Positions 4,562 through 43,385 of a stretch of DNA of 64,000 nt are shown here, in pieces. Below the pieces are notes generated by a model, which ran no database searches, was not told the origin of the DNA, and was given only the letters and a program-made list of their open reading frames with translations. The translations under genes and the position numbers were made by a program. Every line of letters starts with the position of its first letter. Position 1 is the first letter of the stretch. Source of the stretch: Eledone cirrhosa (Eukaryota). The stretch covers positions 1,612,001-1,676,000 of the forward strand of contig OZ024743.1 in the NCBI GenBank assembly GCA_964016885.1. Direction: 5' to 3'.

Positions 4562-4617
<56 letters not shown>

Positions 4618-5235
4618 GTGAGGTTTTTTTTACAAAATGAAAAATAACCGAGGTGTCCTACACGAGTGAAAGTATAAAGAAAAAGAGATGAAATCGAAAA
4701 TGCAACTGAAGTCTTATTTTTTTTTAAAATATATATATTTATTTGGTTCCTTTACCGGTTTCGCAGTTCTTCTGCTTTTCAAAAGGTGAGTTGAGATGGA
4801 GGGTCTGTGGTTTTTCTCACATCTGGTTGGTCTCTGAATGTTACTTGTTTTATATGGAAAAAGTGGCTCGAAATTCCAGGTTTTTCGAGAAGTAATTTGA
4901 TTGGTTTGTCAATAATTATAATAAATTTCGCGCCAGTTCGCGTTACAATAGTTCTTCAAATAAGAGAGGGGGGTTGTCACAGGTTGTTTTTTCATATATG
5001 AGTGTTTGAATTTCTTTTTACTTGAAAAAAGGAGGCTCACGAAGGCTTTTTTTTGGTTGGTTATAAATGAAATTTGGCTGTCACGTGAACAAGTTTTTAT
5101 TACATTTTTGCGCCCTTATTTGGAAAACTATTCTGTAGTCTTTATAGTGAATGTTATGACAATGGAGAGATAGTGGTCAAGAGAAAATGGATTGGGAGAA
5201 ATGTTCTGGTTCAGTGAATATGGCCAGCTCTTTTT

Positions 5236-6396
5236 TATGCCAACTTAGTCATGGCATACTTAGAAGTCCAGATATATGAACAGTCCAAATCAAAATACGG
5301 ATTGAACTTCCACAAATATTTATCAGAGAATTGGAAACGCTACTTGGATGATTGCCTCATTCTTTGGTCCCACACGCTCGACCAACTGAAGGATTTCAAA
5401 AACTTAATAAACGGCATCAATAACCACATCCAATTCACAATGGAATACAGCCAAGATCAACTCCCATTTCTGGACATCTTAATCACAAAAAAAGACACAA
5501 ATATCGAAACTGACATACACTACAAACCAACAGATTCCAAACAATATCTGCTATTCACCTCCAACCATCCAAAGCACACGAAGACGAACATTCCTTTTAA
5601 CCTAGCAAGAAGAATTTGCACAATTGTCTCCAATTATGAAACGCGAAATAAAAGACTTCAAGAATTAAAGGAAATTCTACTTGAGAGAGAGTACCCACTA
5701 TTACTAATAAATAATGGAATCGAAAGGGCTACAGCAATAGGCATTGATGAATTACGGAAACAGAAACAAATTCAAGGTACGTCCAATATTCTATCATATA
5801 TCTCAACATACAACCCAAGAAATGCGGAAGCTTAAAACACTATTCACAATAACATCCCACTACTAAAACAAAACCCAAGAATGAAAAAAGCCCTTGAAAC
5901 ACACAAAATAATCAAAAGCAAAAGACAACCAAAATCACTGAAAACATTACTCACCAATGCCAAATTACCTACCACAAACCCACAACCAAGTATCAAAAAA
6001 TGTGGTCGCTCTAATTGTGGAACCTGCACTCACCTCATTGAAGGCAACACGTATACATTTAAATCAGGACAAAATATTACTGTAAAAAATCACTTCACTT
6101 GCTCATCAAAAAATCTACTTTATGCCATTAAATGTAAAGGATGCAATGAAGATTATATAGGACAAACTAAACTCACACTCAGAAACAGAATGACAGTTCA
6201 TCGCCAACAATTACGAGATCCAACCACGAGACAGATACCACTAAGTGCATATCTAGACATTTGCGCAAGTAATAAGACACCCAAATCCCAAGTCTTCCCA
6301 TTTTACCTTTGCGCTAACAATACAACAGAACAAATGCGAATAAATAAGGAAAATATGTTTATTCAAAAATATAGACCAACATTAAATAAGGTTTAA
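5236..6396 (+). pseudogene. Penelope-like RT (C-terminal half) + GIY-YIG endonuclease, one in-frame stop at 5833
   Basis: YANLVMAYLE, WKRYLDDC, LPFLDILI, YKPTDSKQYL (PLE RT and thumb); CGRSNCGTC linker; LLYAIKCKGCNEDYIGQT (GIY-YIG). ORFs 5251-5835 and 5881-6396 are in the same frame. Confidence 0.92.
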
Positions 6397-6887
6397 TATA
6401 CATTATGTCAACACCACAATATGACATACACACACACACATAACACCTTCTACTTTAGAAAATAAAAACCCGAACTAAATAAACCTTAACATACGTTTGC
6501 ACTGGCAATACAACAGCAAACACGAAAAAGTAAGGAAAATATGTTCATTCAAAAATATTCCTACTAAAGGAATCACTTTCCTACACACACACACAATATA
6601 TATATATATATATATTCTCTTCATCTTAACATGCTAACCATACTCCCACACACATAACACCCATACACACACATAACAACCCCCACACCTACAACTCCCT
6701 CCCCATTTCTACTAATAGAACCACTTTCCTACACACATATATATATACACACACACAACATATATATTCTCTCCATCTTAACATACTCGCACACACACAC
6801 ATAACACCCATATACACACACACACAACTCCCTCCCCCATCTCTACTAATAGAATCATCTTCCAATACACACATACACACACACACA

Positions 6888-6946
<59 letters not shown>

Positions 6947-7470
6947 ACACACAAGCACACAAATAAACATACATATCTTCAGTCTCAATAGAAAATCTGA
7001 ACTTTGACACCCCGGCGAGCTAGCCATATTCACTGAACCAGAACATTTCTCTCAATCCATTTTCTCTTGACCACTATCTCTCCGTTGTCATAACATTCAC
7101 TATAAAGACTACAGAATAGTTTTCCAAATAAGGGCGCAAAAATGTAATAAAAACTTGTTCACGTGACAGCCAAATTTCATTTATAACCAACCAAAAAAAA
7201 GCCTTCGTGAGCCTCCTTTTTTCAAGTAAAAAGAAATTCAAACACTCATATATGAAAAAACAACCTGTGACAACCCCCCCCCCTCTCTCTCTTATTTGAA
7301 GAACTATTGTAACGCGAACTGGCGCGCGAAATTTATTATAATTATTGACAAACCAATCAAATTACTTCTCGAAAAACCTGGAATTTCGAGCCACTTTTTC
7401 CATATAAAACAAGTAACATTCAGAGACCAACCAGATGTGAGAAAAACCACAGACCCTCCATCTCAACTCA

Positions 7471-7508
7471 CCTTTTGAAAAGCAGAAGAACTGCGAAACC
7501 GGTAAAGG
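7471..7508 (+). ncRNA. Minimal type I hammerhead in the Penelope pLTR, U3-A8 variant (inverted copy 4749-4786)
   Basis: cctt-TTGAAAA-gcag aagaa ctgc-GAAA-ccgg-TA-aagg. Palindromic helix III ACCGGU. Confidence 0.8.
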
Positions 7509-7577
7509 AACCAAATAAATATATATATTTTTTTTAAAAATAAGACTGCAGTTGCATTTTCGATTTCATCTCTTTTT

Positions 7578-7653
<76 letters not shown>

Positions 7654-8083: not shown

Positions 8084-11000
8084 TTGACGGGACTAGAAGT
8101 AGCAGACAGGACCGAACAGCATGTACCTAGAAAACCGCGGGTTTCTATCAAAGATCATAAATTAGACTTTAAGACTAACCTACCGGGTAGAGTAATAGCA
8201 CCTTCCAAGTCGGACCTAGCTAGGAATATAATAGATAGGATCCTGCCAACGCTTATGAATAGAAATAGACTTAGCTTATGGACTTCCACCAAAGAGGTAA
8301 TCGACTGGTTCACAGCGCTGCCTTCCAAACAGCAAGTGGACTTCGTTCAGCTGGACATAGTAATTGTGAACAAGGCCCTCGTGAGTGCTATGGCCAGGTT
8401 CAACCTAACTAGAGGAGAAGTGGACATCATTATAGCTGCTAGAAAGACTCTAATTAGGTTTGACGGTAGATTATGGAAAAGGAGAGACAGACCCGACAGT
8501 TTCGACATCACTATGGGGTCGAGCGACTCCGCACAGGTGACGGACCTGGTGGGAATTTATCCAACCGCCTATCCACATTGTCCGCCAACACGGATGTGTT
8601 CAATCAGCACGCCGACTACTGCAACGGGGCATTGGTCAGAGCCGGTTACATAGAAGCCATAGTGTACACCCCGGACAAGGGCAAGCCGCATAACGAGGAA
8701 CGCAAACACCCGGAAACCATTAGTACTATCATAGGCAGACAAACCACCCGGGAGCACACACATAAGGATATGGATAGGAGTATTACGCACGGCAAGGAAG
8801 GCACCACGACGCATAGACAGAAGTGGGCGCATGGGAATCCTAGGGACCCCAGCACATGCAGAATGAACCGTAATAACAGCACAAACCACGAAGGGGAAAC
8901 CAAAGATAGTGAAGTAGCTAACGCAGCACAGGACATAGAACACGCTAGAGATAACACCAGGATAAAGAACACCAACAACGATACGGCGGGACACTCGGGT
9001 AGCAGGACGGAGATCAAAACTAGGGCTAGTAAACGTGTACAGAACAGCATAGTAAGTGAATGCCTTTCTCCCGACTTAAATGGTAGTTCTAAGTTAGGGA
9101 TAGAATAGGGGATGAAATAGGAGTCGGGTGTAACCAGAGAAAACAATATGACACTGCACACATTACTAGTAGCAGACGACGAAATAAGAATAGGTCTAGA
9201 AATATAACATGGTTCAATGCACCATACTGGAAGCATGTATGTATGCACTAACGTGCCAGGACTCTTCTTCAGAGCATTAGACGAGTGTTTCCCGGCATCC
9301 CACAGGTACCACAAAATATTCAACCGCCACACCGTGAAGTTCTCATTTTCCACGGCACCCAACATGGCAGAGTACATGGCCAAGGCCAACGCAATGAAAT
9401 TGAGGACACCCCACCGACAAACTTTACAGGCCTCAGGCACGTCGGGAGGGCTGAGTAGAGCGCATGGTGAAGTGGTTAGTGGTTCTGAAGATGTGCCTCG
9501 GTGTGGAGCTGTGGCCGTGGAGGACGCAACACCTGACAACAGAGACCAACAGGTGGTGAACAATGAGTCCACTACTCTGCCGGAACACCACATGAGGACC
9601 GGGGAGAACCCAAATAAGACGTCAGGCCCACATAAAGAGAATGACAAAAATGATGCACGGACATGTAACTACCGTGTAGGAGAGGAGTGCCCTCTGCAGG
9701 GAATGTGCCAGACAAGGCTCGTTGTCTACAGATGTGTGGTTACCACGCACAATGATAGGCACACCTACATGGGGGCAACATCCACGACTTTTCAATCGAG
9801 GATGTACAACCACAAGAACTCGTTCAAGGACAGGAACAAGAGACACTCCACCAGACTGGCGGACCTAATTTGGGATCTCAAAGACAGTGGCACAGAGTTT
9901 GACCTCAGCTGGAGTATTGTCCAGCTCGCAAATGCGTACTCAGCTGGCGAGATGAGGTGCAAGTTGTGCCTATCCGAGGCTATGGAGATAGTAAAACTAA
10001 AGGACGACGCAGTCAACCTCAAATCTGAAGTCATCATGGCCTGCCGACACCAACGTAAATGCACGCTCTCCGCTTTGGTGATACCAGGTGGGTCTATCTA
10101 AGGCACTACCGGTATGACAATGCCAAGTGGGGTGCATGCGGCGGAACACGATATGCCGCAGCATGAATACACGGCTGGACAAGCTGATATCAGCGACAGA
10201 TCCAACGATACCTACCTCGTAACGTACCTTGGATAACACCATCCCACCAACTCGGGGACACCGACTCATTATAAGTCTGATTTTGTCTACAACCTTATGT
10301 GTGGTTTTGAATTTTTTATTTTTAACTTTTAATTTTCGATTCGTGATATTTAATTTGCAACTTTGATGTTGGACTTGATGCGTATCTTAAGATTAGTGTT
10401 GCAGTTAATTCTAACTTTGCCTGCCGTTGCTATCTACACGCCTAAAACACAAGCCGCTGCTATATTCCACTTATGCATCCATTCCACATACATTTCATAT
10501 ATACTGTTATGAAACACATATTCTATACATTCACGATATATTCCATGTATGCATCCATTCCATGTACATTTCATATATACTATTGTGGAAAGGATATTCT
10601 ACACATTCACAATATATATTACTTGTTTGCGTATGCACACACGGTCCCCTGTGTCCACCTGTCTCATGTGCATGGTTGATGTGCACGCTCTTACCCAGTC
10701 CCTTGGATCGTCAGCCCCTCTATATTTTATATAACCCTATGCACCACGGCCCTCAAGTATTTTTATGCAACTTTATGCACATCCCAATAATGTCCGGGTG
10801 ACGTGAACAGACACTCCTCTGCATCTTTGTCATGTATACATTCCTTTTTCCAGTATTTCATTTTATCTTATTTTATTTTATTTTATTTTATTTTATTTTA
10901 TATACATACACGCATTTATATATAGGTGCCACCCATGTTATCTGTGATTAGGGTATGACTACTACGTAGCTATTACATTTATGAATATTGTGCATGCACT

Positions 11001-13827: not shown

Positions 13828-13880
<53 letters not shown>

Positions 13881-14025
13881 AAAAGAGTCAGGATCCCGAC
13901 GGCTGAGACCCGGCCGTTAGCTGTTTTCATGTTACCCACTCTACTACCCTAAGTATCGAGTACTCTGGTGCGTTATGGTCCACCTGGTATCTTACCACGC
14001 TTCTTTGTTATATATATATATATTT

Positions 14026-17000
14026 ATAAATTGAAACATAAATGAAAACGAAATTTCATTTCTCACTCTTAGTATGGCACTTACTTAAATGTAAGTATGC
14101 ATGTATACGTACATACATATATGTATACAGACGTACAGTAGCATGCACATATATATATATATATACATATATATATACATATGCATACAGGTACACATAC
14201 ATATATGCACGTATCAGTTTAGCGGCGCTAACGTCGCTTTGTTCGTTTGTAAACAAACTGAACAGCCTGAATTTATGCCATACGGTGTTAAGGCAACCAC
14301 GTCACCTTTTTGTTCAACACTGACACAGGAACGATGTACTAGTTTCAAGCTTGTTAGCTATCATCAGCACCGTTTACCCATCTGCCAGATAGTTGAACGT
14401 TCGAAAGTATATACTTTCCTTATGAAAATTAACGGCTGAGCAGCCTAATTTGCATATTGAGTGAGTTAAATCGGTCAGGCATACCGAAAACGATAAATTG
14501 AAACATAAATGAAAACGAAATTTCATTTCTCACTCTTAGTATGGCACTTACTTAAATGTAAGTATGCATGTATACGTACATACATATATGTATACAGACG
14601 TACAGTAGCATGCACATATATATATATATATACATATATATATACATATGCATACAGGTACACATACATATATGCACGTATCAGTTTAGCGGCGCTAACG
14701 TCGCTTTGTTCGTTTGTAAACAAACTGAACAGCCTGAATTTATGCCATACGGTGTTAAGGCAACCACGTCACCTTTTTGTTCAACACTGACACAGGAACG
14801 ATGTACTAGTTTCAAGCTTGTTAGCTATCATCAGCACCGTTTACCCATCTGCCAGATAGTTGAACGTTCGAAAGTATATACTTTCCTTATGAAAATTAAC
14901 GGCTGAGCAGCCTAATTTGCATATTGAGTGAGTTAAATCGGTCAGGCATACCGAAAACGATAAATTGAAACATAAATGAAAACGAAATTTCATTTCTCAC
15001 TCTTAGTATGGCACTTACTTAAATGTAAGTATGCATGTATACGTACATACATATATGTATACAGACGTACAGTAGCATGCACATATATATATATATATAC
15101 ATATATATATACATATGCATACAGGTACACATACATATATGCACGTATCAGTTTAGCGGCGCTAACGTCGCTTTGTTCGTTTGTAAACAAACTGAACAGC
15201 CTGAATTTATGCCATACGGTGTTAAGGCAACCACGTCACCTTTTTGTTCAACACTGACACAGGAACGATGTACTAGTTTCAAGCTTGTTAGCTATCATCA
15301 GCACCGTTTACCCATCTGCCAGATAGTTGAACGTTCGAAAGTATATACTTTCCTTATGAAAATTAACGGCTGAGCAGCCTAATTTGCATATTGAGTGAGT
15401 TAAATCGGTCAGGCATACCGAAAACGATAAATTGAAACATAAATGAAAACGAAATTTCATTTCTCACTCTTAGTATGGCACTTACTTAAATGTAAGTATG
15501 CATGTATACGTACATACATATATGTATACAGACGTACAGTAGCATGCACATATATATATATATATACATATATATATACATATGCATACAGGTACACATA
15601 CATATATGCACGTATCAGTTTAGCGGCGCTAACGTCGCTTTGTTCGTTTGTAAACAAACTGAACAGCCTGAATTTATGCCATACGGTGTTAAGGCAACCA
15701 CGTCACCTTTTTGTTCAACACTGACACAGGAACGATGTACTAGTTTCAAGCTTGTTAGCTATCATCAGCACCGTTTACCCATCTGCCAGATAGTTGAACG
15801 TTCGAAAGTATATACTTTCCTTATGAAAATTAACGGCTGAGCAGCCTAATTTGCATATTGAGTGAGTTAAATCGGTCAGGCATACCGAAAACGATAAATT
15901 GAAACATAAATGAAAACGAAATTTCATTTCTCACTCTTAGTATGGCACTTACTTAAATGTAAGTATGCATGTATACGTACATACATATATGTATACAGAC
16001 GTACAGTAGCATGCACATATATATATATATATACATATATATATACATATGCATACAGGTACACATACATATATGCACGTATCAGTTTAGCGGCGCTAAC
16101 GTCGCTTTGTTCGTTTGTAAACAAACTGAACAGCCTGAATTTATGCCATACGGTGTTAAGGCAACCACGTCACCTTTTTGTTCAACACTGACACAGGAAC
16201 GATGTACTAGTTTCAAGCTTGTTAGCTATCATCAGCACCGTTTACCCATCTGCCAGATAGTTGAACGTTCGAAAGTATATACTTTCCTTATGAAAATTAA
16301 CGGCTGAGCAGCCTAATTTGCATATTGAGTGAGTTAAATCGGTCAGGCATACCGAAAACGATAAATTGAAACATAAATGAAAACGAAATTTCATTTCTCA
16401 CTCTTAGTATGGCACTTACTTAAATGTAAGTATGCATGTATACGTACATACATATATGTATACAGACGTACAGTAGCATGCACATATATATATATATATA
16501 CATATATATATACATATGCATACAGGTACACATACATATATGCACGTATCAGTTTAGCGGCGCTAACGTCGCTTTGTTCGTTTGTAAACAAACTGAACAG
16601 CCTGAATTTATGCCATACGGTGTTAAGGCAACCACGTCACCTTTTTGTTCAACACTGACACAGGAACGATGTACTAGTTTCAAGCTTGTTAGCTATCATC
16701 AGCACCGTTTACCCATCTGCCAGATAGTTGAACGTTCGAAAGTATATACTTTCCTTATGAAAATTAACGGCTGAGCAGCCTAATTTGCATATTGAGTGAG
16801 TTAAATCGGTCAGGCATACCGAAAACGATAAATTGAAACATAAATGAAAACGAAATTTCATTTCTCACTCTTAGTATGGCACTTACTTAAATGTAAGTAT
16901 GCATGTATACGTACATACATATATGTATACAGACGTACAGTAGCATGCACATATATATATATATACATATATATATACATATGCATACAGGTACACATAC

Positions 17001-17204
17001 ATATATGCACGTATCAGTTTAGCGGCGCTAACGTCGCTTTGTTCGTTTGTAAACAAACTGAACAGCCTGAATTTATGCCATACGGTGTTAAGGCAACCAC
17101 GTCACCTTTTTGTTCAACACTGACACATATATATATATATATATATGTGCATGCTACTGTACGTCTGTATACATATATGTATGTACGTATACATGCATAC
17201 TTAC
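14026..17204 (-). mobile_element. Retrozyme-like tandem array A: 467-bp unit, ~6.6 near-identical copies plus short inverted tail
   Basis: Units start at 14026, 14493, 14960, 15427, 15894, 16361 and 16828 (ORF track repeats every 467 bp); array ends 17127; ~17128-17204 is an inverted piece of the unit; in (TA)n. Confidence 0.92.
14330..14374 (-). ncRNA. Minimal type I hammerhead ribozyme, array A (copies also at 14797, 15264, 15731, 16198, 16665; 45 nt each)
   Basis: aacggtg-CTGATGA-t agct aaca agct t-GAAA-ctag-TA-catcgtt. Helix I 7 bp, palindromic helix III ACUAGU, GUA site. Confidence 0.9.
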
Positions 17205-17209
17205 ATATA

Positions 17210-17327
<118 letters not shown>

Positions 17328-17822: not shown

Positions 17823-18022
17823 NNNNNNNNNNNNNNNNNNNNNNNNNNNNNNNNNNNNNNNNNNNNNNNNNNNNNNNNNNNNNNNNNNNNNNNNNNNNNN
17901 NNNNNNNNNNNNNNNNNNNNNNNNNNNNNNNNNNNNNNNNNNNNNNNNNNNNNNNNNNNNNNNNNNNNNNNNNNNNNNNNNNNNNNNNNNNNNNNNNNNN
18001 NNNNNNNNNNNNNNNNNNNNNN
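17823..18022. other. Assembly gap (200 N)
   Basis: Run of N. Confidence 1.
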
Positions 18023-18643
<621 letters not shown>

Positions 18644-21336
18644 AGACGGTAATATGTGTCACATATCGGCCGCCCGATGCCCCCAGTCATGAGGGTAAAT
18701 TTGAGGATAGCCTAAGTAGGATAGAAGAGGTCCTTGACAAACTGGACCAGGGTCTCAACATCCTACTGCTGGGAGACTTCAACCTACCAAAGGTCAAATG
18801 GCCTGAGAGCCACCTCCTCCCTGGAATGACGTCAATAGAACAGAGACAGACGGAATCCCTGCTGGCCCTCACACACAGGCTGTTCATTGAGCAAGCAATA
18901 CTCCTCCCAACAAGAGGCGAAAATGTCCTGGACCTCTGTTTACAAACAACGAAGTGCTCATCCACAATGTAAAGGTGACACCAACAATTCTCTCGGATCA
19001 TAACTTGGTAGAGCTAATGATATGTGGTCCAAGAGAACCAACAGAGACAAAACCACCAAGAAGCTCCGGGACGCTATCCAGCCTTAACTTCTACGGGGCT
19101 GACTGGAAGAAGATTAAGAGTGAAATCCGGAAGCAAACGTGGAGTGCAAACATCGCCACACAAGACACTAACACACAATTTCAACACTTCATGACAACGA
19201 TACACACCATATGCAAAAAGTGTGTCCCGGAGAAAGAGGCAAACAGACACAAAAATCTTATTCCCAGAGATAGGAAAATCCTTATGAGACGTAGAACTAA
19301 ACTCTCAAACCAATTGAATAGTCAACAAAACCAAAACAAGAAGGAATCCTATTTGAAACGTGCACTACTTGACACCGAGATTGCACTCAAGCTTTCACAT
19401 GAGAATGAGAGGGCAAGGAAAGAGAACAGGGCCATAGAAAACATTAAAACAAACCCTAAGGCCTTCTTTAAATTTGCAAAAGAAACTGCCTCAGTACACT
19501 GCAAGATTGGACCACTCTTCCACACGGACGGTTCATTAACCGAAAATCCCCAAGAGATATGTGAAATACTGAACGAACAGTACAAAAGTGTCTTCACATG
19601 TCCACTGAGGCACATGCAAATAACGAAGCCAGAGGAGTTCTTTGATGCCACAACACTACATCAAGAAATGGCAACCATCAACCACATAGACATAACGGAG
19701 GAGGATGTGGTGTACGCCATTGATGAAATTAGAACAGACTCGGCTGCTGGACCTGATGGATTCCCAGCAGTTCTCCTAAAAATATGTAAGCGGGCCTTAG
19801 CAACTCCACTGAAGATGCTCTTCAGAAGCTCCTTGGCTAGCGGTGTACTACCCAGGGAGCTGAAAGAAGGCACAATATGCCCTATCCATAAAGGAGGTAG
19901 TAGAGCGGAGGCCAAGAACTATAGGCCAGTCTCCCTGACGTCGCATATCAGTAAGGTCATGGAGCGAGTCGTCAGAAAGAAACTAATCACTTTCCTCGAA
20001 GAAAATGACCGCCTGACTAGCACGCAACATGGCTTCCGCCCAGGAAGAAGCTGCCTTACACAGCTGATACATCACTACGACTGGGTACTGAGACAGCTAC
20101 TAGACAGCTCACATGTAGACGTGATATATCTTGACTTTGCGAAGGCCTTTGACAAGGTCGACCACGGAATGATATGTCACAAACTACACGGACTCGGCAA
20201 GTCGCAGCAAATGGGGCCCTCTCGAGGGAAACACCGATAACAAGTGGGGTGCCTCAGGGGACAGTCCTGGGACCACTACTGTTTTTGGTGGCTCTCTCGG
20301 ACATGCCCTCTGTGGTGCATGCAACAACATCCCTCACTAGCTATGCTGATGACACTAAGGTAGCACAGGCAATCAAAAACCCGGCTGACGCTGCCCTCTT
20401 ACAGCAGGATCTGGATGCCATATACAGATGGGCGGAAGAAAACAACATGCAGTTTAATGCTGGCAAATTCCAAGCCCTATAATACAAACCTGCAAACACA
20501 AACACAAATATAGCGGAACACAGCTACACAGGACCAGGAGGGACCGATATCTCCGTGTCAAAATCGATACGAGACCTGGGCATAGACATGAGCGATGATG
20601 CATCTTTTTCTTCACACATCATGAAGGTGGCGACAGCATGTAGACGATTCGCTGGCTGGATCTTGAGGACTTTCCTTACAAGAGATCGAGACACCATGTT
20701 GACACTGTGGAGGACTTTTGTCCTAAGCCGCCTGGACTACTGCTCCCAGCTGTGGTCACCCCATAGTGTCAAACTAACCACAGAGCTTGAGGCAATCCAG
20801 CGAAGCTACACCAAGAGGATTGCCAAGATGAGGGAGACAAGCTATTGGGAGAGGCTGAAGGAACTGACACCTCTACTCCTTGGAGCGAAGACGGGGAGAG
20901 ATACGCAGTGATCTACATGTGGAAAATCCTGGAGGGACTAGCACCAAACTTTGGCATTGGGAGCTGGACCAACCGTCGAACAGGACGTCACTGTGTGGTG
21001 CCAAAGGTCCCGTCTTCCACATCTAGAATAAGGAGCAGGTATTGCAATAGCCTGGGATTCAAGGGCCCTCAACTCTTCAACAGGCTGCCGAGGCATCTGC
21101 GAGACTTGCATGACGTGGAGGTGGATGTCTTTAAGAAACATCTCGACACCTTGTTATCCAGGATCCCGGATGAGCCCACAGCAAGACACGAGGGAAACCT
21201 AAGGGCAGCAGCAACAAACTCCCTCCTACACCAGTGGCCAACCTATACAGGCTGGAGATAAAATGTGTAGCAACAAGGGCGGTGCCCCAGCATGGCCTCA
21301 GCCGGATGGCTGAAACAGGTAAAAGAGTAAAAGAGA
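18644..21336 (+). mobile_element. CR1-group LINE, 5'-truncated ORF2 (APE + RT) pseudogene with 3' stem-loop, in (TA)n
   Basis: [23 protein letters not shown] (APE); [43 protein letters not shown] (RT). Frameshifts near 18945, 20197 (deletion) and 20870; stop at 20480; tail ggtaaaagagtaaaagag. A 3'-end copy is also at 45724-45772. Confidence 0.92.
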
Positions 21337-27482
<6,146 letters not shown>

Positions 27483-27779
27483 ATAAAAACAAATAACGAA
27501 ACGAAATTAAATTTCGTTTCGTTTGTAACTCACTTTTGTATGACTGACGCTTAAACAATTAAGTTAAAGATGTACATCCATATATGTATACTGAAATACT
27601 AGTATGTATATGAATACACACACGTATACATATGTAGATGTACCAAGTTTTTTCACTGGTCACTTTTACTGTGAGTGGCCAGCTATTCTGTATGTAAACA
27701 CACAGACAAACCGGTTTTTAGAGTCATACTGGTTTTTGAGGAAACACCTTTCCTCTATTCTCCAGAAAGCCAGACAAGG

Positions 27780-27824
27780 AATATTGAACTAGTTTCGTTG
27801 TTGTTACAACTCATCAGCAATATT
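27780..27824 (-). ncRNA. Minimal type I hammerhead, array B left arm (copies at 28246, 28712, 29179, 29646, 30113, 30580, 31047, 31514, 31981)
   Basis: aatattg-CTGATGA-gttg taacaa caac-GAAA-ctag-TT-caatatt. Palindromic helix III AACUAGUU, GUU site. Confidence 0.9.
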
Positions 27825-30800
27825 TACTATCTTCCGGCCTCTCTAGAGAATCGTAAAAGCACATATCGTTATTGCTTATTTCTATGAAAATTAGTAGTGG
27901 GCAGACTAATTTGCATAGAGTGTGAGTAAGTACCGGTTCAACGGAGACGATAAAAACAAATAACGAAACGAAATTAAATTTCGTTTCGTTTGTAACTCAC
28001 TTTTGTATGACTGACGCTTAAACAATTAAGTTAAAGATGTACATCCATATATGTATACTGAAATACTAGTATGTATATGAATACACACACGTATACATAT
28101 GTAGATGTACCAAGTTTTTTCACTGGTCACTTTACTGTGAGTGGCCAGCTATTCTGTATGTAAACACACAGACAAACCGGTTTTTAGAGTCATACTGGTT
28201 TTTGAGGAAACACCTTTCCTCTATTCTCCAGAAAGCCAGACAAGGAATATTGAACTAGTTTCGTTGTTGTTACAACTCATCAGCAATATTTACCTATCTT
28301 CCGGCCTCTCTAGAGAATCGTAAAAGCACATATCGTTATATGCTTTTTCTATGAAAATTAGTAGTGGGCAGACCAATTTGCATAGAGTGTGAGTAAGTAC
28401 CGGTTCAACGGAGACGATAAAACAAATAACGAAACGAAATTAAATTTCGTTTCGTTTGTAACTCACTTTTGTATGACTGACGCTTAAACAATTAAGTTAA
28501 AGATGTACATCCATATATGTATACTGAAATACTAGTATGTATATGAATACACACACGTATACATATGTAGATGTACCAAGTTTTTTCACTGGTCACTTTA
28601 CTGTGAGTGGCCAGCTATTCTGTATGTAAACACACAGACAAACCGGTTTTTAGAGTCATACTGGTTTTTGAGGAAACACCTTTCCTCTATTCTCCAGAAA
28701 GCCAGACAAGGAATATTGAACTAGTTTCGTTGTTGTTACAACTCATCAGCAATATTTACCTATCTTCCGGCCTCTCTAGAGAATCGTAAAAGCACATATC
28801 GTTATATGCTTTTTCTATGAAAATTAGTAGTGGGCAGACTAATTTGCATAGAGTGTGAGTAAGTACCGGTTCAACGGAGACGATAAAAACAAATAACGAA
28901 ACGAAATTAAATTTCGTTTCGTTTGTAACTCACTTTTGTATGACTGACGCTTAAACAATTAAGTTAAAGATGTACATCCATATATGTATACTGAAATACT
29001 AGTATGTATATGAATACACACACGTATACATATGTAGATGTACCAAGTTTTTTCACTGGTCACTTTACTGTGAGTGGCCAGCTATTCTGTATGTAAACAC
29101 ACAGACAAACCGGTTTTTAGAGTCATACTGGTTTTTGAGGAAACACCTTTCCTCTATTCTCCAGAAAGCCAGACAAGGAATATTGAACTAGTTTCGTTGT
29201 TGTTACAACTCATCAGCAATATTTACCTATCTTCCGGCCTCTCTAGAGAATCGTAAAAGCACATATCGTTATATGCTTTTTCTATGAAAATTAGTAGTGG
29301 GCAGACCAATTTGCATAGAGTGTGAGTAAGTACCGGTTCAACGGAGACGATAAAAACAAATAACGAAACGAAATTAAATTTCGTTTCGTTTGTAACTCAC
29401 TTTTGTATGACTGACGCTTAAACAATTAAGTTAAAGATGTACATCCATATATGTATACTGAAATACTAGTATGTATATGAATACACACACGTATACATAT
29501 GTAGATGTACCAAGTTTTTTCACTGGTCACTTTACTGTGAGTGGCCAGCTATTCTGTATGTAAACACACAGACAAACCGGTTTTTAGAGTCATACTGGTT
29601 TTTGAGGAAACACCTTTCCTCTATTCTCCAGAAAGCCAGACAAGGAATATTGAACTAGTTTCGTTGTTGTTACAACTCATCAGCAATATTTACCTATCTT
29701 CCGGCCTCTCTAGAGAATCGTAAAAGCACATATCGTTATATGCTTTTTCTATGAAAATTAGTAGTGGGCAGACTAATTTGCATAGAGTGTGAGTAAGTAC
29801 CGGTTCAACGGAGACGATAAAAACAAATAACGAAACGAAATTAAATTTCGTTTCGTTTGTAACTTACTTTTGTATGACTGACGCTTAAACAATTAAGTTA
29901 AAGATGTACATCCATATATGTATACTGAAATACTAGTATGTATATGAATACACACACGTATACATATGTAGATGTACCAAGTTTTTTCACTGGTCACTTT
30001 ACTGTGAGTGGCCAGCTATTCTGTATGTAAACACACAGACAAACCGGTTTTTAGAGTCATACTGGTTTTTGAGGAAACACCTTTCCTCTATTCTCCAGAA
30101 AGCCAGACAAGGAATATTGAACTAGTTTCGTTGTTGTTACAACTCATCAGCAATATTTACCTATCTTCCGGCCTCTCTAGAGAATCGTAAAAGCACATAT
30201 CGTTATATGCTTTTTCTATGAAAATTAGTAGTGGGCAGACCAATTTGCATAGAGTGTGAGTAAGTACCGGTTCAACGGAGACGATAAAAACAAATAACGA
30301 AACGAAATTAAATTTCGTTTCGTTTGTAACTCACTTTTGTATGACTGACGCTTAAACAATTAAGTTAAAGATGTACATCCATATATGTATACTGAAATAC
30401 TAGTATGTATATGAATACACACACGTATACATATGTAGATGTACCAAGTTTTTTCACTGGTCACTTTACTGTGAGTGGCCAGCTATTCTGTATGTAAACA
30501 CACAGACAAACCGGTTTTTAGAGTCATACTGGTTTTTGAGGAAACACCTTTCCTCTATTCTCCAGAAAGCCAGACAAGGAATATTGAACTAGTTTCGTTG
30601 TTGTTACAACTCATCAGCAATATTTACCTATCTTCCGGCCTCTCTAGAGAATCGTAAAAGCACATATCGTTATATGCTTTTTCTATGAAAATTAGTAGTG
30701 GGCAGACCAATTTGCATAGAGTGTGAGTAAGTACCGGTTCAACGGAGACGATAAAAACAAATAACGAAACGAAATTAAATTTCGTTTCGTTTGTAACTCA

Positions 30801-32448
30801 CTTTTGTATGACTGACGCTTAAACAATTAAGTTAAAGATGTACATCCATATATGTATACTGAAATACTAGTATGTATATGAATACACACACGTATACATA
30901 TGTAGATGTACCAAGTTTTTTCACTGGTCACTTTACTGTGAGTGGCCAGCTATTCTGTATGTAAACACACAGACAAACCGGTTTTTAGAGTCATACTGGT
31001 TTTTGAGGAAACACCTTTCCTCTATTCTCCAGAAAGCCAGACAAGGAATATTGAACTAGTTTCGTTGTTGTTACAACTCATCAGCAATATTTACCTATCT
31101 TCCGGCCTCTCTAGAGAATCGTAAAAGCACATATCGTTATATGCTTTTTCTATGAAAATTAGTAGTGGGCAGACTAATTTGCATAGAGTGTGAGTAAGTA
31201 CCGGTTCAACGGAGACGATAAAAACAAATAACGAAACGAAATTAAATTTCGTTTCGTTTGTAACTCACTTTTGTATGACTGACGCTTAAACAATTAAGTT
31301 AAAGATGTACATCCATATATGTATACTGAAATACTAGTATGTATATGAATACACACACGTATACATATGTAGATGTACCAAGTTTTTTCACTGGTCACTT
31401 TACTGTGAGTGGCCAGCTATTCTGTATGTAAACACACAGACAAACCGGTTTTTAGAGTCATACTGGTTTTTGAGGAAACACCTTTCCTCTATTCTCCAGA
31501 AAGCCAGACAAGGAATATTGAACTAGTTTCGTTGTTGTTACAACTCATCAGCAATATTTACCTATCTTCCGGCCTCTCTAGAGAATCGTAAAAGCACATA
31601 TCGTTATATGCTTTTTCTATGAAAATTAGTAGTGGGCAGACCAATTTGCATAGAGTGTGAGTAAGTACCGGTTCAACGGAGACGATAAAAACAAATAACG
31701 AAACGAAATTAAATTTCGTTTCGTTTGTAACTCACTTTTGTATGACTGACGCTTAAACAATTAAGTTAAAGATGTACATCCATATATGTATACTGAAATA
31801 CTAGTATGTATATGAATACACACACGTATACATATGTAGATGTACCAAGTTTTTTCACTGGTCACTTTACTGTGAGTGGCCAGCTATTCTGTATGTAAAC
31901 ACACAGACAAACCGGTTTTTAGAGTCATACTGGTTTTTGAGGAAACACCTTTCCTCTATTCTCCAGAAAGCCAGACAAGGAATATTGAACTAGTTTCGTT
32001 GTTGTTACAACTCATCAGCAATATTTACCTATCTTCCGGCCTCTCTAGAGAATCGTAAAAGCACATATCGTTATATGCTTTTTCTATGAAAATTAGTAGT
32101 GGGCAGACTAATTTGCATAGAGTGTGAGTAAGTACCGGTTCAACGGAGACGATAAAAACAAATAACGAAACGAAATTAAATTTCGTTTCGTTTGTAACTC
32201 ACTTTTGTATGACTGACGCTTAAACAATTAAGTTAATTTAACTTAATTGTTTAAGCGTCAGTCATACAAAAGTGAGTTACAAACGAAACGAAATTTAATT
32301 TCGTTTCGTTATTTGTTTTTATCGTCTCCGTTGAACCGGTACTTACTCACACTCTATGCAAATTGGTCTGCCCACTACTAATTTTCATAGAAAAAGCATA
32401 TAACGATATGTGCTTTTACGATTCTCTAGAGAGGCCGGAAGATAGGTA

Positions 32449-32493
32449 AATATTGCTGATGAGTTGTAACAACAACGAAACTAGTTCAATATT
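32449..32493 (+). ncRNA. Minimal type I hammerhead, array B right arm (copies at 32916, 33383)
   Basis: Same motif read directly on the + strand: aatattgctgatgagttgtaacaacaacgaaactagttcaatatt. Confidence 0.9.
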
Positions 32494-33643
32494 CCTTGTC
32501 TGGCTTTCTGGAGAATAGAGGAAAGGTGTTTCCTCAAAAACCAGTATGACTCTAAAAACCGGTTTGTCTGTGTGTTTACATACAGAATAGCTGGCCACTC
32601 ACAGTAAAGTGACCAGTGAAAAAACTTGGTACATCTACATATGTATACGTGTGTGTATTCATATACATACTAGTATTTCAGTATACATATATGGATGTAC
32701 ATCTTTAACTTAATTGTTTAAGCGTCAGTCATACAAAAGTGAGTTACAAACGAAACGAAATTTAATTTCGTTTCGTTATTTGTTTTTATCGTCTCCGTTG
32801 AACCGGTACTTACTCACACTCTATGCAAATTAGTCTGCCCACTACTAATTTTCATAGAAAAAGCATATAACGATATGTGCTTTTACGATTCTCTAGAGAG
32901 GCCGGAAGATAGGTAAATATTGCTGATGAGTTGTAACAACAACGAAACTAGTTCAATATTCCTTGTCTGGCTTTCTGGAGAATAGAGGAAAGGTGTTTCC
33001 TCAAAAACCAGTATGACTCTAAAAACCGGTTTGTCTGTGTGTTTACATACAGAATAGCTGGCCACTCACAGTAAAGTGACCAGTGAAAAAACTTGGTACA
33101 TCTACATATGTATACGTGTGTGTATTCATATACATACTAGTATTTCAGTATACATATATGGATGTACATCTTTAACTTAATTGTTTAAGCGTCAGTCATA
33201 CAAAAGTGAGTTACAAACGAAACGAAATTTAATTTCGTTTCGTTATTTGTTTTTATCGTCTCCGTTGAACCGGTACTTACTCACACTCTATGCAAATTGG
33301 TCTGCCCACTACTAATTTTCATAGAAAAAGCATATAACGATATGTGCTTTTACGATTCTCTAGAGAGGCCGGAAGATAGGTAAATATTGCTGATGAGTTG
33401 TAACAACAACGAAACTAGTTCAATATTCCTTGTCTGGCTTTCTGGAGAATAGAGGAAAGGTGTTTCCTCAAAAACCAGTATGACTCTAAAAACCGGTTTG
33501 TCTGTGTGTTTACATACAGAATAGCTGGCCACTCACAGTAAAGTGACCAGTGAAAAAACTTGGTACATCTACATATGTATACGTGTGTGTATTCATATAC
33601 ATACTAGTATTTCAGTATACATATATGGATGTACATCTTTAAC

Positions 33644-33688: not shown

Positions 33689-35969
33689 TGACGCTATGGA
33701 TTTCCACAATGCAAACTGGGAAGCGATCAGTCATGATCTTGCACATGTCGACTGGTCCTTCACGCACACTCATACACCCACTAACATCAAAAAGTCCTGG
33801 CAGACATTTGTGGACACTGTTACAAACATATGTGCTAAACACACCCCATTAAGAACTATAAACAAATCTAAGAGCAGAATCCCTAGAAATAGAAAAACGC
33901 TCATCAGAAAAATTAAGAGAACGAACAAAAAAATCAACAATCTGAAATACTGTCAGCAGCAACACATCAACTTGACTGCCATTTCATCACTAGAGATTAA
34001 AAAACATAACCTCCAAAACAACATAATGTCCCTCATCAACAATCAGAGAAGAGCTGAAGAGGCCTGGGCCATTGAGAAGATCAAACTCAATCCCAAAGTG
34101 TTCTTTTCATTTGCAAAAAAACACAAAATCACTGGCTCTACTGTTGGCCCTCTAATTGATGAAAATGGCACTCTTCAAGACAATGCTAAAACCATGGGTG
34201 AGATACTGCAGAAACAATACTGCTCTGTTTTCAGCAATCCTGATATGGCCGATCTGGGCTGTATCGGCGATGTTACTCCCCATTACACCTTATCGGACAT
34301 AACGTTTGGCACCCCTGATGTCTTGGCGGCAATAAAGGAAATCAAGCATAACTCAGCAGTAGGTCCCGATAGGTTCCCTGCTTGTGTCTTGAAGGCGTGT
34401 CAACACCAACTTGCTTCTCCTCTTGCCAATCTGTGGCGGAACTCACTGGATGCTGGATATGTGCCAGAAAACCTTCTATCCCAGTCTGTTGTCCCAGTTT
34501 TCAAAAAGGGAAACAAATCCCTTGCCGTGAATTACCGTCCAATCTCACTCACCTCTCATATCATTAAGGTATTTGAGCGAGTGGTGAGATCGCGAATGAC
34601 CCACTTCCTTGAGAGTAACAATATGCTGAACTCCAACCAGCATGGATTCCGTAATGGAAGGGATTGCCTGACGCAACTACTGCATCACTTTGATGACATT
34701 TTGAGAGCCTTGGGAGAGGGTTCCAACACTGATGTTATCTACCTTGATTTCAGCAAGGCCTTTGACAGGGTTGATCATAACATTCTACTGAGAAAGCTGT
34801 CCAATATTGGTGTCACTGGAAAGCTGCTGCAGTGGATCAAGAGCTTCCTGTCAAACAGAACCCAACATGTTGTAGTTGAGGGAGTCAAATCAAGCCCAGC
34901 CAAAGTCAGTAGTGGAGTCCCACAAGGCACTGTGTTGGGCCCACTTCTCTTCATCATCTATATTAATGACATCACTGACATCATCAAACACAGCAACATT
35001 AAAATTTTCGCTGATGATTCCAAGCTCCAAAAGGTCATCAATGGCGTGGATGACCGGATAAGCCTTCAGTCAGACCTACTGGCTGTTACCCAATGGGCAG
35101 AAAAGAACAACATGTTACTGAACGAAGACAAATTCGAACTGATCCACTTTGGAAAAGAGGATGCTCTGAAACTCCCGTACTCCCTTCCCTCCGGGGAAAC
35201 TCTCGTGGCATCTAACAACATCAGAGACTTGGGAGTAACCGTGGACAGCAACATAAGCTGGACCACGCATATAAGCAGCAAAGTTGACATGGCCCGCAGA
35301 ATGTGTTCCTGGATCCTCAGAACCTTCCAGTCGAGAGATTCCCGCACCATTATCCTTCTCTTCTCTACTTTCGCCCGACCACACCTTGAATACTGTTGTC
35401 CACTGTGGTCTCCCCACACGAAACAAAGTATCATGAAACTTGAAGCTCCTCAAAGGGCAATCACGAAAAAGATAGATGGCATGTCAGACCTTGACTACTG
35501 GGGTCGATTGGAAAACCTGAAACTTTACTCACTCCAACGTCGCCGTGAGCGTTATATTATCTGCATGATGTGGAAAATGTTCCATCATCACTGCCCAAAT
35601 GATGTTGGCATCGCCTTCAAGATACACCCAAGGCTTGGGCCCCGTGCTATCCGTCCCATTCAAAAATCTAAATCGCAACTCATAACAACAATACGGCACA
35701 ATTATTTCACCTCAATCGGCCCTGCTCTCTTCAACATCACACCAGGACACGTCAAAACAGAAACTGACCACACAAAATTCAAGAAGTCTTTGGACAAATT
35801 CCTCCAAGTAATCCCGGACAAACCACCCACACCCGGATATGTCTCCGCAAACAGTAATTCTCTTCTCGAATGGGCCATGGTGCCCAAATCCTGAATTGAA
35901 AGACTTCGCCAGGTGGTGCTATTAAGTTAGACATGGCCTGGGCCAATACTGGCCAAAACATTTCAAAGT

Positions 35970-35970
<1 letters not shown>
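33689..35970 (+). mobile_element. CR1-group LINE, 5'-truncated, uninterrupted RT frame, in (TA)n
   Basis: Open frame to 35894; 3' UTR hairpin tggcc...ggcca; (TA)n on both sides. Confidence 0.92.
33696..35894 (+). CDS. LINE ORF2 reverse transcriptase (partial, no APE domain)
   Basis: [68 protein letters not shown]. The N-terminal ~50 aa of the tracked ORF come from repeat sequence. Confidence 0.88.
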
Positions 35971-38361
<2,391 letters not shown>

Positions 38362-38731
38362 TGTTATAAAGGCCATACAAACTGAGACGGCGGTTAAGAA
38401 GCTATCAACCACCTAAGCCAAAAAGACGAGGCAAGCTAAACGGGTCAAACAAAATAAATGAAATATTTACCCGGACCTTTGGAAATGATGGTATAATCCA
38501 GTACAGGGTTTCTGCGACACCTAAATCAATAATGCTGTCTGTTTAAAATAATAATCTTTTGGTATAATGATCGAACAAGGCTGTTAGTTTGTCCGTTTCA
38601 GTTTGTATGGCCTTTATAACCTAGGTTTATTGCTCTGGTCTCTATTGGTCCATGGAGCGCTTGCCAGCATAACTCGGATATTGCGTTTCGCTTATTTTCG
38701 ACCTGCCGAAATACGATTCACGCTGAATTTA

Positions 38732-39920: not shown

Positions 39921-42900
39921 CTACAGGCTGAGGTAGAGAGAAGGCCCATTCACACGGGCCATTCTCGCAACTTTCACCCACCTTTCATAAAACTGGCTGG
40001 AGTGGAGCACCTCTCTCTCCATCCTGATCCTTCTTCCGAAATGGTATCGGAAAAAAAGGACCAGTTGTTGGCCGGAGAGAAAGGTGTCCGACCTCAGCCC
40101 TTTCAGACGCGTCCACCATATAGCCTCTTTTACCATGGCTATTACACAGAGGAAGACCGCCTCTCCTTCATTTTTGAAGTGGGGAGGCGGCTTGATCGTT
40201 ACAATGGACTCGGTGGTCAACCTAATTGGTCCCACCCGTGACAGCAGTTGTTCGACATAGCCCCACAGATCGGCAACGCCCGGGCAGTGCACCAATGCGT
40301 GCGCGACGGTTTCCTCGTCGCGCACGCATCTGGGACAGATCTTTTTCGAGGGGTCCCTACCCGGGCGCCCGTGTCTGTAGAGCTTATCCCGAACGGGCAG
40401 AGCCCCTCGGTAGCACTGCCAGGCCAAGGACTTCTGGAAGTTGTCCATAGGTCCCGGGCCGAAAGTCCTACCGAATAGACTGGCCAGTTCGTCCTCCTCC
40501 ATGCCTAGGGCTTCTCCGAGGGCGTCGTCGCACCCGTTAACCACCAGCCCTCTATAGAATGACGAGGTGGAGTCTCCGTCGATAGCCGGGTCCGCCTGCC
40601 AGAGAGCCGTGAGCGCCTGGGCACACTCGGTGTGCCAGTCGCCCAGTTTTCTCGGTCTTTGCTTCACCCAGGACTGCAGCTCGGTGAGCGAGACGAGCCT
40701 CGGGAAGGCTCGCCTCACAAACGGGGCCCACACCGGTTGACCGGTGAGGAATACGTGGAGGTGCCTTAGCCTCAATGCGTGTTTACGCATTTTTAGCCAC
40801 GGCATCCCCAGCCCTCCTTTCAAAGGGTGTTGACAGCAGATGGATCTCCTCACTAGAGGAGACCTCTTCTTCCAAAGGAAATAAAAGAGGGCGCGCTCCA
40901 TTTTGGCGAGGATCTCACCCGGGCAAGGCACGACAGTCAAGCGGTAATAGATGACGGACGCTATGTAAGCGTTCGCCACCTCCGCCCGACCTTTTAGGGA
41001 TAGTTTGCACTCGGCCCACTTCTGGGTCAGTGCAAACACCCTATTCGTCACCTCACCCCAGTTTTTCTCCACCTGGAGGTCCGGTCCGAACCAGACCCCA
41101 AGCAACTTCACCGGGCCCTCCGTCCACCGTCCGACGATACCGTCGCACGACATCGCTTTGCCCCTCCACTCGCCGAGTTGCAAAGCGACTGACTTGTCCC
41201 GGTTCAGCTTAGCCCCTGTCAACCTTTCGTACTCCTCTAGTAAGGTGCCGATCGCCTCGATTTCCGAGGCGGTCGACACCATTACTGTTACGTCATCGGC
41301 GTAGGCCGACACCGCTTTGCGCAATCCCGGTTCCAAAGGGATGCCCTGCAACAACTCCAACTTCCGCAGTAATGGCTCGAGAGTCAATACATACAGAAGG
41401 GAGGAGAGAGGGCACCCCTGTCGGATGGAGCGGGTGATTTCGAACGGCTCCGAAAGGTAGCCGTTCACCTTGACTCTAGAGCAGATGCGGCTGCTGTGCA
41501 TGGCAGTGATCCAGCCCCTGAAAACGGGTCCGAACCCAGCCGCCGCTAGCACCGCATCCAGGTAACCATGGTCCACCCTATCGAACGCTTTAGACTGATC
41601 TAAATTTATCAGGGCCCCACCAAAGCCGGGTTCGTTCCCAACCCTCTCTATGATGTATCGCATGAGGTGGAGGTTGTCGTGGATGGACCTGGACGGGATA
41701 GCGCATGTCTGCGCATCTCCCACCAGGCCCCCCACGACAAGCGCCAACCTCTTCGCTAACACCTTCGCCAAAATTTTTAACTCTGCATTTAGCAGAGTTA
41801 TGGGCCTAAAATTACTAATGTCATCCCCCTTGTTCTCGTACTTCCTCACTAGCGAGACTACGCCCTTGGTCACAGAACAGGGAATTCTCCCGTTCTGTTG
41901 CCAGTTGCAGTAGACCGCCTCGAGGAGATCGGGGAACAAGTCCGGCATATTAATATATAGTTCGTAGGGCAGACCATCGAGTCCTGGAGATTTGCGTTTG
42001 CCGCATAGGCTCAGCACGTCCCCTATTTCAGCAGCTGAGATCGGCCCGTCGCAGGACCTCGCCTCCCTGTCCGAAAGACGCGGCAGACCGTCGAGGTATG
42101 GACCGAAATCCACATCTCCAACCGGCTCCCCGCCCCTCCCGAACAATTGGGCAAAGTGCCTTTGAAAGGCCTCGCACATTTGCTTAGGTTCAAGGATCAG
42201 CCGTCCATCCTGGTCTCGCAAAGACCGGATAGTGGATTTAATCCCACTTTTCGCTTCTGTCACGCGGGCCCAGCTAACAGCTTTGGTCCCCTCGTTTCCC
42301 AGAGCACGTATTTTGCTTCGGACAACGCAGCCTTCGTGTTTCGCGTCGAAGAACTGGTTCAAGACCGTTCTCGACGCTTGCACTCTGGCCACGTTGCCGC
42401 TTCTCATTGCCTCTTCAACATTAACTACCAACTCCCTTTCCTTCCTATTTCTATCTGAGGCTAACTCCTTACTAACTCCTATTGAAACTACTCTAATCTC
42501 TCTTTTTAGAGAGCCCCACCACCTGTTGTTGACGATGGCGCCCGTCAACTGCTCCTTAACTAAGGTTCTAATCCGGTCCCTGTAAGCTCTACTTGCCGGT
42601 AAGGACAAGTTGAGCTTCCAGTAACCGGGCCCCTGCCTATGCATTCTATCAAGGTGGACTACGCAGGTCACTAACTTGTGGTCTGAATAGCCCACCATGA
42701 GCATTTCTGGACAACTTAAAAAGTCCCTATCCTTAATTCTAACTAAGAACCTATCTAGGTACGATCTAGATTGACCACTGTTATTTGACCAGGTCCAGGT
42801 TGGTACAGTCGGAAAATCTAGTCGGTATCTATCGGCCAGGTCGAATCGGCCGATTAACCCCTTAAGGCTGTTACACCCCCCTCTATCGGGACATGCCCCT

Positions 42901-43362
42901 ACATAGTCCCAACGTGCATCTAGGATACCATTCCAGTCCCCCACTAAAAGCAAGGAGCGGGACGTCCCTAGAAAAGTCTCCAGACGATGGAAGAAGTCCG
43001 ACCGCATTGCCCCAAAAGGGGCGTATACGGCGACAAGCCTAAAAGCTTCGCCTTCGCCATTGCCAAGGTCCAGAACCACGAGTCGACCCTCCGGGTCCAA
43101 GTGTACCGTCTGTGTAGCGAGACCCAGATGTTTTTGCAGCAGAACGACAACCCCACCCCCACCTCCAGGCTGACAGAGAGATGCGTGCATCTCAAAGTCA
43201 TCAAAGGTGGGGGTTAGCTGTCGCATGCTGCTGATCCGGGCCTCCCTCGCAAATAACCATCACATTTACACATTGTGACCTGAGGTCACTTAGAAGTTTA
43301 GCTTGCTTCCAAGGTGAGCCCAGGCCACGCGCATTTAGACATCCTACTCTTAAGACAGCCAT
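39921..43362 (-). CDS. ORF2: APE endonuclease + RT + C-terminal CCHC zinc motif; one frameshift near 43245
   Basis: Likely start MAVLRVGCLNARGL at 43362; VGDWN, SYLDRFLV, SDHKLV; [45 protein letters not shown]; CPRC...HALVHC. Confidence 0.92.
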
Positions 43363-43385
43363 GTTGGTGGCAAAGAAAGAGGCAC

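Follow-up and report, generated by a model that had tools for sequence, protein, structure and literature searches.

The DNA analysed here, called the window, is a stretch of 64,000 nucleotides from Eledone cirrhosa (assembly GCA_964016885.1, contig OZ024743.1, positions 1,612,001 to 1,676,000). It contains a tandem array of a 467-bp unit, array A, that carries a hammerhead ribozyme motif and ends in an inverted piece of its own sequence. The question raised by this locus is from which RNA, and by means of which enzyme, such an array was written into the genome. A previous sequence-only reading had proposed a very recent retro-insertion of a multimeric or rolling-circle copy of a ribozyme-processed 467-nt RNA, and had given weight to the 9 nt that separate its 5′ end from the self-cleavage site. 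We conclude that array A is almost certainly a non-LTR retrozyme. We further regard it as a good working interpretation that it represents a young two-armed retrozyme insertion, likely generated by the RT/GIY-YIG enzyme of a Penelope-like element (PLE) and probably from one circular or multimeric RNA. Recent retro-insertion is thus retained from the earlier proposal, while the multimeric or rolling-circle origin is kept as a live reading.

Array A and its hammerhead motif

Tandem Repeats Finder identified array A at 14026-17127, with a period of 467 and 6.6 copies. The units had been described as near-identical, and the six full ones (starting at 14026, 14493, 14960, 15427, 15894 and 16361) show 0 differing positions; the seventh (16828-17127) is partial and 2 bp short in its TA tract. 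Units are numbered here in the minus-strand sense, with position 467 at 14026 and the predicted cut after position 156. The features of the insertion are the following:

14009-14025, no strand: left target, a TA microsatellite
14026-17127, minus strand: left arm, six identical 467-bp units and a partial unit (sense 166-467)
14026-14088, minus strand: "tail", the 63 nt that separate the two 3′ ends, short and long (sense 405-467), and include a hairpin
14039, minus strand: one-base insertion at sense 454, in all seven units of array A
14331-14373, minus strand: type I hammerhead motif, copy 1, predicted cut between 14337 and 14336
14798-14840, 15265-15307, 15732-15774, 16199-16241 and 16666-16708, minus strand: type I hammerhead motif, copies 2-6
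14422-14457, minus strand: conserved hairpin of families A and B, containing ATGCAAAT and an inverted near-copy
17128-17206, plus strand: right arm, unit sense about 328-404, up to the "short" 3′ end of the family
17205-17325, no strand: right target, a TA microsatellite

The left arm runs from its "long" 3′ end at 14026 to a 5′ truncation at 17127 (sense 166). A17127 is the last matching base and, as had been claimed, only the 9 nt CAUCGUUCC after GUA are lacking at this sense 5′ end. The inverted piece reported there is indeed plus-strand unit sequence (the right arm), which meets the left arm head-to-head with 0-2 nt between them. The 63-nt tail is found in every unit, and of the outer ends on one only. 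As TA runs flank the array on both sides, a target-site duplication of more than 4 bp, such as non-LTR retrozymes may have, is indistinguishable. Array A is non-coding: the sole frame of at least 150 aa across it is a microsatellite read-through, and it contains no ORF combining RT and GIY-YIG, hence lacking what defines an autonomous PLE.

The ATGCAAAT hairpin is followed, just upstream of the ribozyme motif, by a TATATA palindrome (14403-14418, minus strand). The hairpin motif is one that we take to be octamer-like. It could be an RNA element or a candidate octamer-like promoter motif; by analogy, hairpin and palindrome together could be an internal promoter such as that of newt satellite 2, or an RNA element.

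The hammerhead motif consists of helix I ACGGUG/CAUCGU, CUGAUGA, GAAA and CUAG-UA, with the predicted cut after GUA. Predicted cuts start at 14337/14336 and recur every 467 bp up to 16672/16671. Helix II is made of a U.U mismatch and AGCU/AACA/AGCU; helix III is the palindrome ACUAGU (AC-UA-GU), which has a 2-nt loop and does not close in the monomer. The sequence-only reading had recognised the palindrome and had called the ribozyme minimal. The first description stands; the second does not, in the terms of PMC4209133, where a 6-bp helix I, a 4-bp helix II and a short palindromic helix III are given as the ordinary metazoan type I form. The min-HHR of the same paper has no or a minimal helix III/loop 3 and a G10.1-C11.1 pair, whereas the motif of array A has helix III AC-UA-GU and U.U at 10.1/11.1.

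When the pattern CTGATGA-N10-22-GAAACTAGT was searched in the genome, 23,712 matches were obtained versus 4 for the reversed control; as judged by this search, the motif of array A is far beyond chance. Rfam, at its gathering thresholds, gave 0 hits over the whole window. The computed energy of the local hammerhead fold is -19.7 kcal/mol and that of the palindrome duplex between motif copies -4.8 kcal/mol. The helix-III-swapped dimer reaches a computed -20.4 kcal/mol versus -14.4 kcal/mol for two monomers without helix III, values consistent with the previous argument that helix III needs a partner. That such ribozymes cleave efficiently as dimers was an overstatement: axolotl dimers do so (PMC7229834), but those of minimal PLE hammerheads are reported to cleave poorly (PMC4209133), and of 9 Xenopus dimers only 1 was cleaved (bioRxiv 10.64898/2026.07.22.740005). 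Self-cutting of array A RNA is a prediction. The monomer of family A folds with z = -8.8, a value that includes its TA-rich stem; in the circular fold, helix I forms incompletely, with pair probabilities of 0.18-0.80.

Families A and B and the two-armed layout

Dispersed copies, on whose existence the previous reading depended, were found genome-wide. By pattern search, 10,672 exact 31-nt ribozyme cores of family A are present in the 3.0-Gb genome and 5,196 exact cores of a sister family, B; controls gave 0 in both cases. The unit of family B is also 467 bp long. An array of this family lies at 27483-33643 of the window (array B), with two arms of 10.2 and 3.0 units, the long end at 27483, the short end at 33643, and an A/G alternation between units at one site in both arms. 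Aligned, A and B are identical at 262 of 485 columns and start in the same register; they share the same series of hairpins in the same order, and their helices I and II differ yet still pair, by compensatory changes.

The family A loci studied are the first matches listed: 54 regions selected by the ribozyme core, 22 by the tail and 22 by the unit junction, 98 aligned loci in all. For family B and B-like sequences 39 loci were fetched, and 34 B loci, array B included, entered the counts. Per-position conservation is biased by this choice of loci and was set aside as evidence of selection. Chimeric A/B arms, suspected in L264, were ruled out on alignment, the three loci with both families being separate insertions.

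At the sampled loci, all called junctions between opposite arms are head-to-head. The outer ends lie at position 467 or about 404 in family A, and the short end of family B at 393-398. One long and one short outer end are combined at 38 of 55 A junctions and at 19 of 22 B junctions, and two long ends at none in either family. The 17 A junctions not scored as long plus short partly reflect fragmented alignments; the remaining junctions have two short ends (4) or an unclassified end. Opposite arms mostly join through an overlap of 0-5 nt. Array A follows the end rule, its long end being at 14026 and its short end at 17206. The fixed 3′ ends of family A are 248 and 311 nt downstream of the predicted cut. 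TA runs flank array A and make up most of the locus flanks inspected, with exceptions that include L254 and L216.

An inverted, 5′-truncated copy at the 5′ end is thus present in array A as well as at 54 further A and 22 B junctions. The inverted piece of array A, which had been left without explanation, is the second arm of the same insertion, of Penelope type: it is a regular component of these elements, and the ends that are fixed are the 3′ ends. Both arms can be long, as in L141 (6+12 full units), L250 (16+8) and L155 (10+11).

Two further loci were noticed in this survey. A B-like insertion (L262-L263, G000:C1:5738094-5752747) comprises about 31 units (14 kb) in its left arm and less than one unit in the right. 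The other locus, L128:5473-7501, adjoins a PLE copy and belongs to a different two-armed hammerhead family, whose unit is 310 bp long and whose palindrome is ACGCGU.

The copying enzyme and the template

A two-armed PLE is inserted in (TA)n at about 4612-7580 of the window, with RT/GIY-YIG remnants at 5218-6396. Near each 3′ end it has a U3-A8 hammerhead, a core variant already known (PMC4209133), with the palindrome ACCGGU; its ends are about 62-64 nt apart, nearly the same spacing as the 63 nt of family A, and a tail is found on the left arm only. Full copies of its family encode a 775-aa ORF with RVT_1 and GIY-YIG, preceded by a 409-aa frame without Pfam match. The family is young, the best 150 of 20,228 candidates being 97-100% identical. 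Among 25 of its hammerhead-bearing 3′ regions, taken from 14 loci, 12 stop at the short end and 13 run into the tail. The 22 tail-only loci of family A, considered as PLE candidates, proved to be short truncated copies. Broken ORF pieces at 8084-10101 of the window look by eye like a second, different PLE (RT-like and endonuclease-like), with no Pfam match at E 0.001.

EN+ PLEs resemble family A in several traits. They show 5′ truncation, partial tandems and an inverted 5′-truncated copy at the 5′ end (PMC8557442), as well as a tail at one end, microsatellite or AT-rich targets and a hammerhead in the repeat (PMC8557442, PMC4209133). In the in vitro work of Frangieh et al. (2024; PMC11167929), a PLE protein cuts AT-rich DNA on both strands, extends both, and starts reverse transcription at two internal RNA sites, which bound the "tail". 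The ends of family A match this both-strand, two-start-site behaviour. Family A differs from the EN+ PLEs described in these sources in having no ORF, a tail of about 63 nt versus 30-40 and arms of up to tens of units, and its sequence matches the pLTR of none of the PLEs sampled. The PLE of the window shares no clear sequence with family A. A helper with an A- or B-like 3′ region was found neither among 14 copies of this PLE nor among 30 GIY-YIG loci, apart from separate neighbouring retrozyme insertions, these 14 and 30 loci being few in comparison with the more than 10,000 candidates; those A and B loci that were inspected for one contain no helper PLE either. As neither shared sequence nor a helper with A-like ends is at hand, the link to PLEs rests on footprint, not on homology. 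On that footprint, we consider it very probable that family A is copied by a PLE enzyme.

According to the mechanism that we propose, tandem transcripts would self-cleave through helix-III-swapped dimers and would then be closed into circles by ligation, as happens in coral, mussel and axolotl. The PLE enzyme would nick both strands of (TA)n, and each DNA 3′ end would prime a cDNA at one internal RNA site, sense 467 or about 404. The cDNAs would extend inward, across the ribozyme site again and again, until they stopped at random, and would then be joined to each other, usually across an overlap of 0-5 nt. In array A, the left cDNA would have run 6.6 units and the right one about 80 nt.

The one-base insertion of array A bears on the nature of the template. 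A unit junction with this extra base occurs 6 times in the assembly, always within array A; the extra base before a TA run, as expected for a terminal copy, gave 0 matches in the assembly, and junctions without it gave 3,546 matches with a longer pattern. As the base is private to array A and present in all seven units, it points to a single-unit bottleneck. As far as these counts go, it fits the copying of one RNA circle; a source in an unassembled haplotype or a duplication after insertion is also possible. As all full units are in one arm, such a duplication could also have spread the private base. As to whether the template of array A was a monomer circle, rather than an uncleaved or multimeric RNA or the product of later local duplication, we consider the evidence evenly balanced.

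Other arrays are also homogeneous, such as L141 with 18 identical full units and L153 with 7. When the sampled arms are ranked by closeness, the partner arm comes first, alone or in a tie, at 19 of 21 B loci and 21 of 37 A loci; on this comparison, both arms are copied from one haplotype. Distances within an array are smaller than that to the closest other locus in only 6 of 11 A arrays, which counts against our interpretation, and in 12 of 13 B arrays. Mosaic arrays also exist, as L084 (bcd, then aabcab...) and the left arm of L155 (bbabbabbaa). Ordered mosaics have a period of 2 or 3, sometimes in both arms. L233 switches variant after six units, and in the 31-unit arm variants recur in blocks, with a 5-bp deletion in two adjacent units. 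Periodic mosaics point to multimeric templates or later local duplication, not to a monomer circle in general.

The same element and the same enzyme may instead have used uncleaved read-through RNA, or a dimer or trimer circle, of a master array, with the hammerhead idle in the insertion. The higher-order mosaics, some of them common to both arms, agree with this, and so do the multimeric RNAs of axolotl (PMC7229834) and the findings of PMC11167929, where the enzyme mainly used uncleaved RNA, hammerhead cleavage was dispensable and reads ending at the hammerhead site were absent. Uniformly spread 5′ ends would fit equally well. A further argument comes from a haplotype of family B that has three A-to-G changes within 6 nt of the conserved hairpin; 69 copies of it are spread over 7 loci (L141, L248-L254), from which it follows that arrays can seed daughter arrays. 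In those long arrays that were scored (L141, L248, L249, L250), this haplotype has acquired no further substitution common to a whole array, as would also be expected from read-through transcripts of a master array. Against such templates, the assembly contains no array from which the variant of array A could have come, and an error newly made in a multimeric RNA would be seen in a single unit and not in all seven. Array-wide variants restricted to a single sampled locus were also found in the two-armed L143, L155 and L245, the genome-wide check having been made for array A only. All in all, we regard copying from read-through or multimeric RNA as a possible but rather unlikely origin. RNA editing was considered for the three A-to-G changes and is a possible origin of them; it is unsupported overall, the counts of A>G and T>C among rare array-wide variants being 24 and 6 in a loose set that includes inherited lineage variants, and 3 and 2 in a strict set of young single-locus changes.

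Returning to the ribozyme-made circle, the most far-reaching form of our interpretation is that each insertion is the fossil of rolling-circle reverse transcription by a dimeric PLE enzyme, with both TA ends primed on one circle. We put this forward tentatively and with some doubt. If true, arrays would preserve, in their successive units, a record of whether the template had been a monomer, dimer or trimer circle, and of the processivity of the enzyme, up to about 14 kb in one arm. They would also provide direct genomic evidence, with the enzyme named, for the proposed and unproven circular-RNA-to-DNA step of animal retrozymes.

A second alternative is a short Penelope-type insertion of 1-2 units that later grew as a minisatellite, by slippage or unequal exchange, following the local-amplification model of Li et al. 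(2026). Such growth would account for the adjacent units with a common deletion, the block-wise variants of long arrays, the switch in L233 and the confinement of the full units of array A to one arm, but it is difficult to reconcile with several loci in which both arms are long and identical (L141, L250, L155) and with outer ends that remain fixed. Moreover, with 0 substitutions, array A would have had little time to grow after insertion. We therefore regard it as improbable.

The 9-nt distance could also mean that the 5′ end of the insertion is the 5′ end of the ribozyme-processed RNA, trimmed by 9 nt. The distribution of 5′ ends does not bear out the meaning that had been attributed to this distance. 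Among 108 family A ends, array A itself being excluded, 3 are within 10 nt of the cut site versus 4.86 expected if uniform; none is within 2 nt, and the KS p value is 0.43. Three ends besides that of array A, at 160, 166 and 168, do not exceed expectation. In family B, 1 of 36 ends is near the cut site. For this analysis, 7 of 47 first-pass A rows were removed, as one side was merely a TA-run match of less than 50 nt. Loci selected by the core under-sample short arms that stop inside it, and the sets selected by tail or junction likewise show no peak. As every insertion has two inner ends, an end so near the cut is to be expected in about 9% of all insertions. Given that inner 5′ ends are evenly spread, the 9-nt distance is due to chance; given that they do not pile up at the cut site, linear monomers left by cleavage do not usually serve as template. 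The junction of array A, in addition, sits on an AT overlap with the second arm, and a trimmed ribozyme end is very unlikely.

Less credible still is that array A is an error of the assembly, or a satellite formed at the DNA level whose likeness to a ribozyme is due to chance: a 200-N gap (17823-18022) lies 600 bp from array A and the unit count comes from the assembly alone, but the same layout recurs over the sampled loci, the motif greatly exceeds its control and has compensatory helices, and the family is present in public data. Six public runs from 4 studies match family A; none is recorded as RNA, and they have no bearing on expression. Contigs from three of these runs match it as family variants only. 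None bridges the arm junction of array A, in a comparison that skips repeats and has no bearing on the presence of the insertion.

Relation to known retrozymes and neighbouring elements

Li et al. (2026; bioRxiv 10.64898/2026.07.22.740005), in a survey of vertebrates, define a retrozyme by at least two consecutive units, each with a complete type I hammerhead; array A has the motif in six consecutive units. Its type I motif and multi-copy tandem differ from the layout of LTR retrozymes, which have a type III hammerhead in two terminal repeats. Metazoan non-LTR retrozymes, as described from coral, mussel and axolotl (PMC7229834), are like array A in being non-coding tandems with one type I hammerhead per unit, and like family A in their low GC, thousands of dispersed copies and a monomer with strong self-pairing. 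Axolotl HHR_Amex2 likewise has a U.U mismatch at the base of helix II, and HHR_Amex1 a weak palindromic helix III (PMC7229834). The 467-bp unit compares with 150-450 bp in Cervera (PMC7229834) and 51-972 bp in Li et al. For the coral, mussel and axolotl elements, expression, cleavage and circles have been demonstrated (PMC7229834), whereas for family A they are putative.

Newt satellite 2 and the schistosome satellite repeats resemble family A as tandem repeats of the transcribed type with a dimer-dependent hammerhead (PMC2220036, PMC7229834). Newt satellite 2 has an internal snRNA-type promoter (PMC2220036), and family A a conserved octamer-like motif that is a putative promoter. Unlike these satellites as described there, family A forms dispersed short arrays with retrotransposon ends.

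Family A would appear to be a new addition to the non-LTR retrozymes already known from animals. Two head-to-head arms, two fixed 3′ ends and (TA)n targeting are undescribed for retrozymes in the portions of PMC7229834 and of Li et al. that were covered, and in the literature surveyed, mostly open-access articles without their supplements, we found no description of family A or of a two-armed, two-start footprint in retrozymes. Mobilisation by PLEs and a circular template have already been proposed for animal retrozymes, and are presented as hypotheses (PMC7229834, bioRxiv 10.64898/2026.07.22.740005). As the class is known and the 9-nt coincidence fails, array A is ordinary by itself. Its value is that of a test case for which enzyme copies animal retrozymes and whether a circle is the template. 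As an intact young PLE is present in the same genome and the starts are mapped to a few bases (467 and about 404), the question of circle versus linear template is readily assayable. Related ribozyme motifs number about 24,000, and these elements are moreover an active source of multi-kilobase inverted repeats in the genome.

Other features were observed in the window. Directly left of array A, a short element (13878-14008) lies between two TA runs. Related sequence recurs beside TA runs at L221, L225 and L232 and near 23945-24090 of the window, and it is probably another TA-targeting element. Very long degenerate TA tracts extend over 21337-27485 (6.1 kb) and 35970-38362 (2.4 kb), adjoining array B and a LINE. 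Further CTGA-N-GA motifs at 45697, 48000, 48575, 49040 and 60081-60278 fail the helix I filter; they include an inverted pair (48000/48575) and a 58-bp tandem at 60081, and are possibly hammerhead remnants of other PLE-related families. LINE-like reverse transcriptase frames were recognised by eye at 18891-21261, 33689-35894, 39921-45164 and 52350-53021; among them is an apparently intact two-ORF element on the minus strand, with frames of 1112 and 592 aa.
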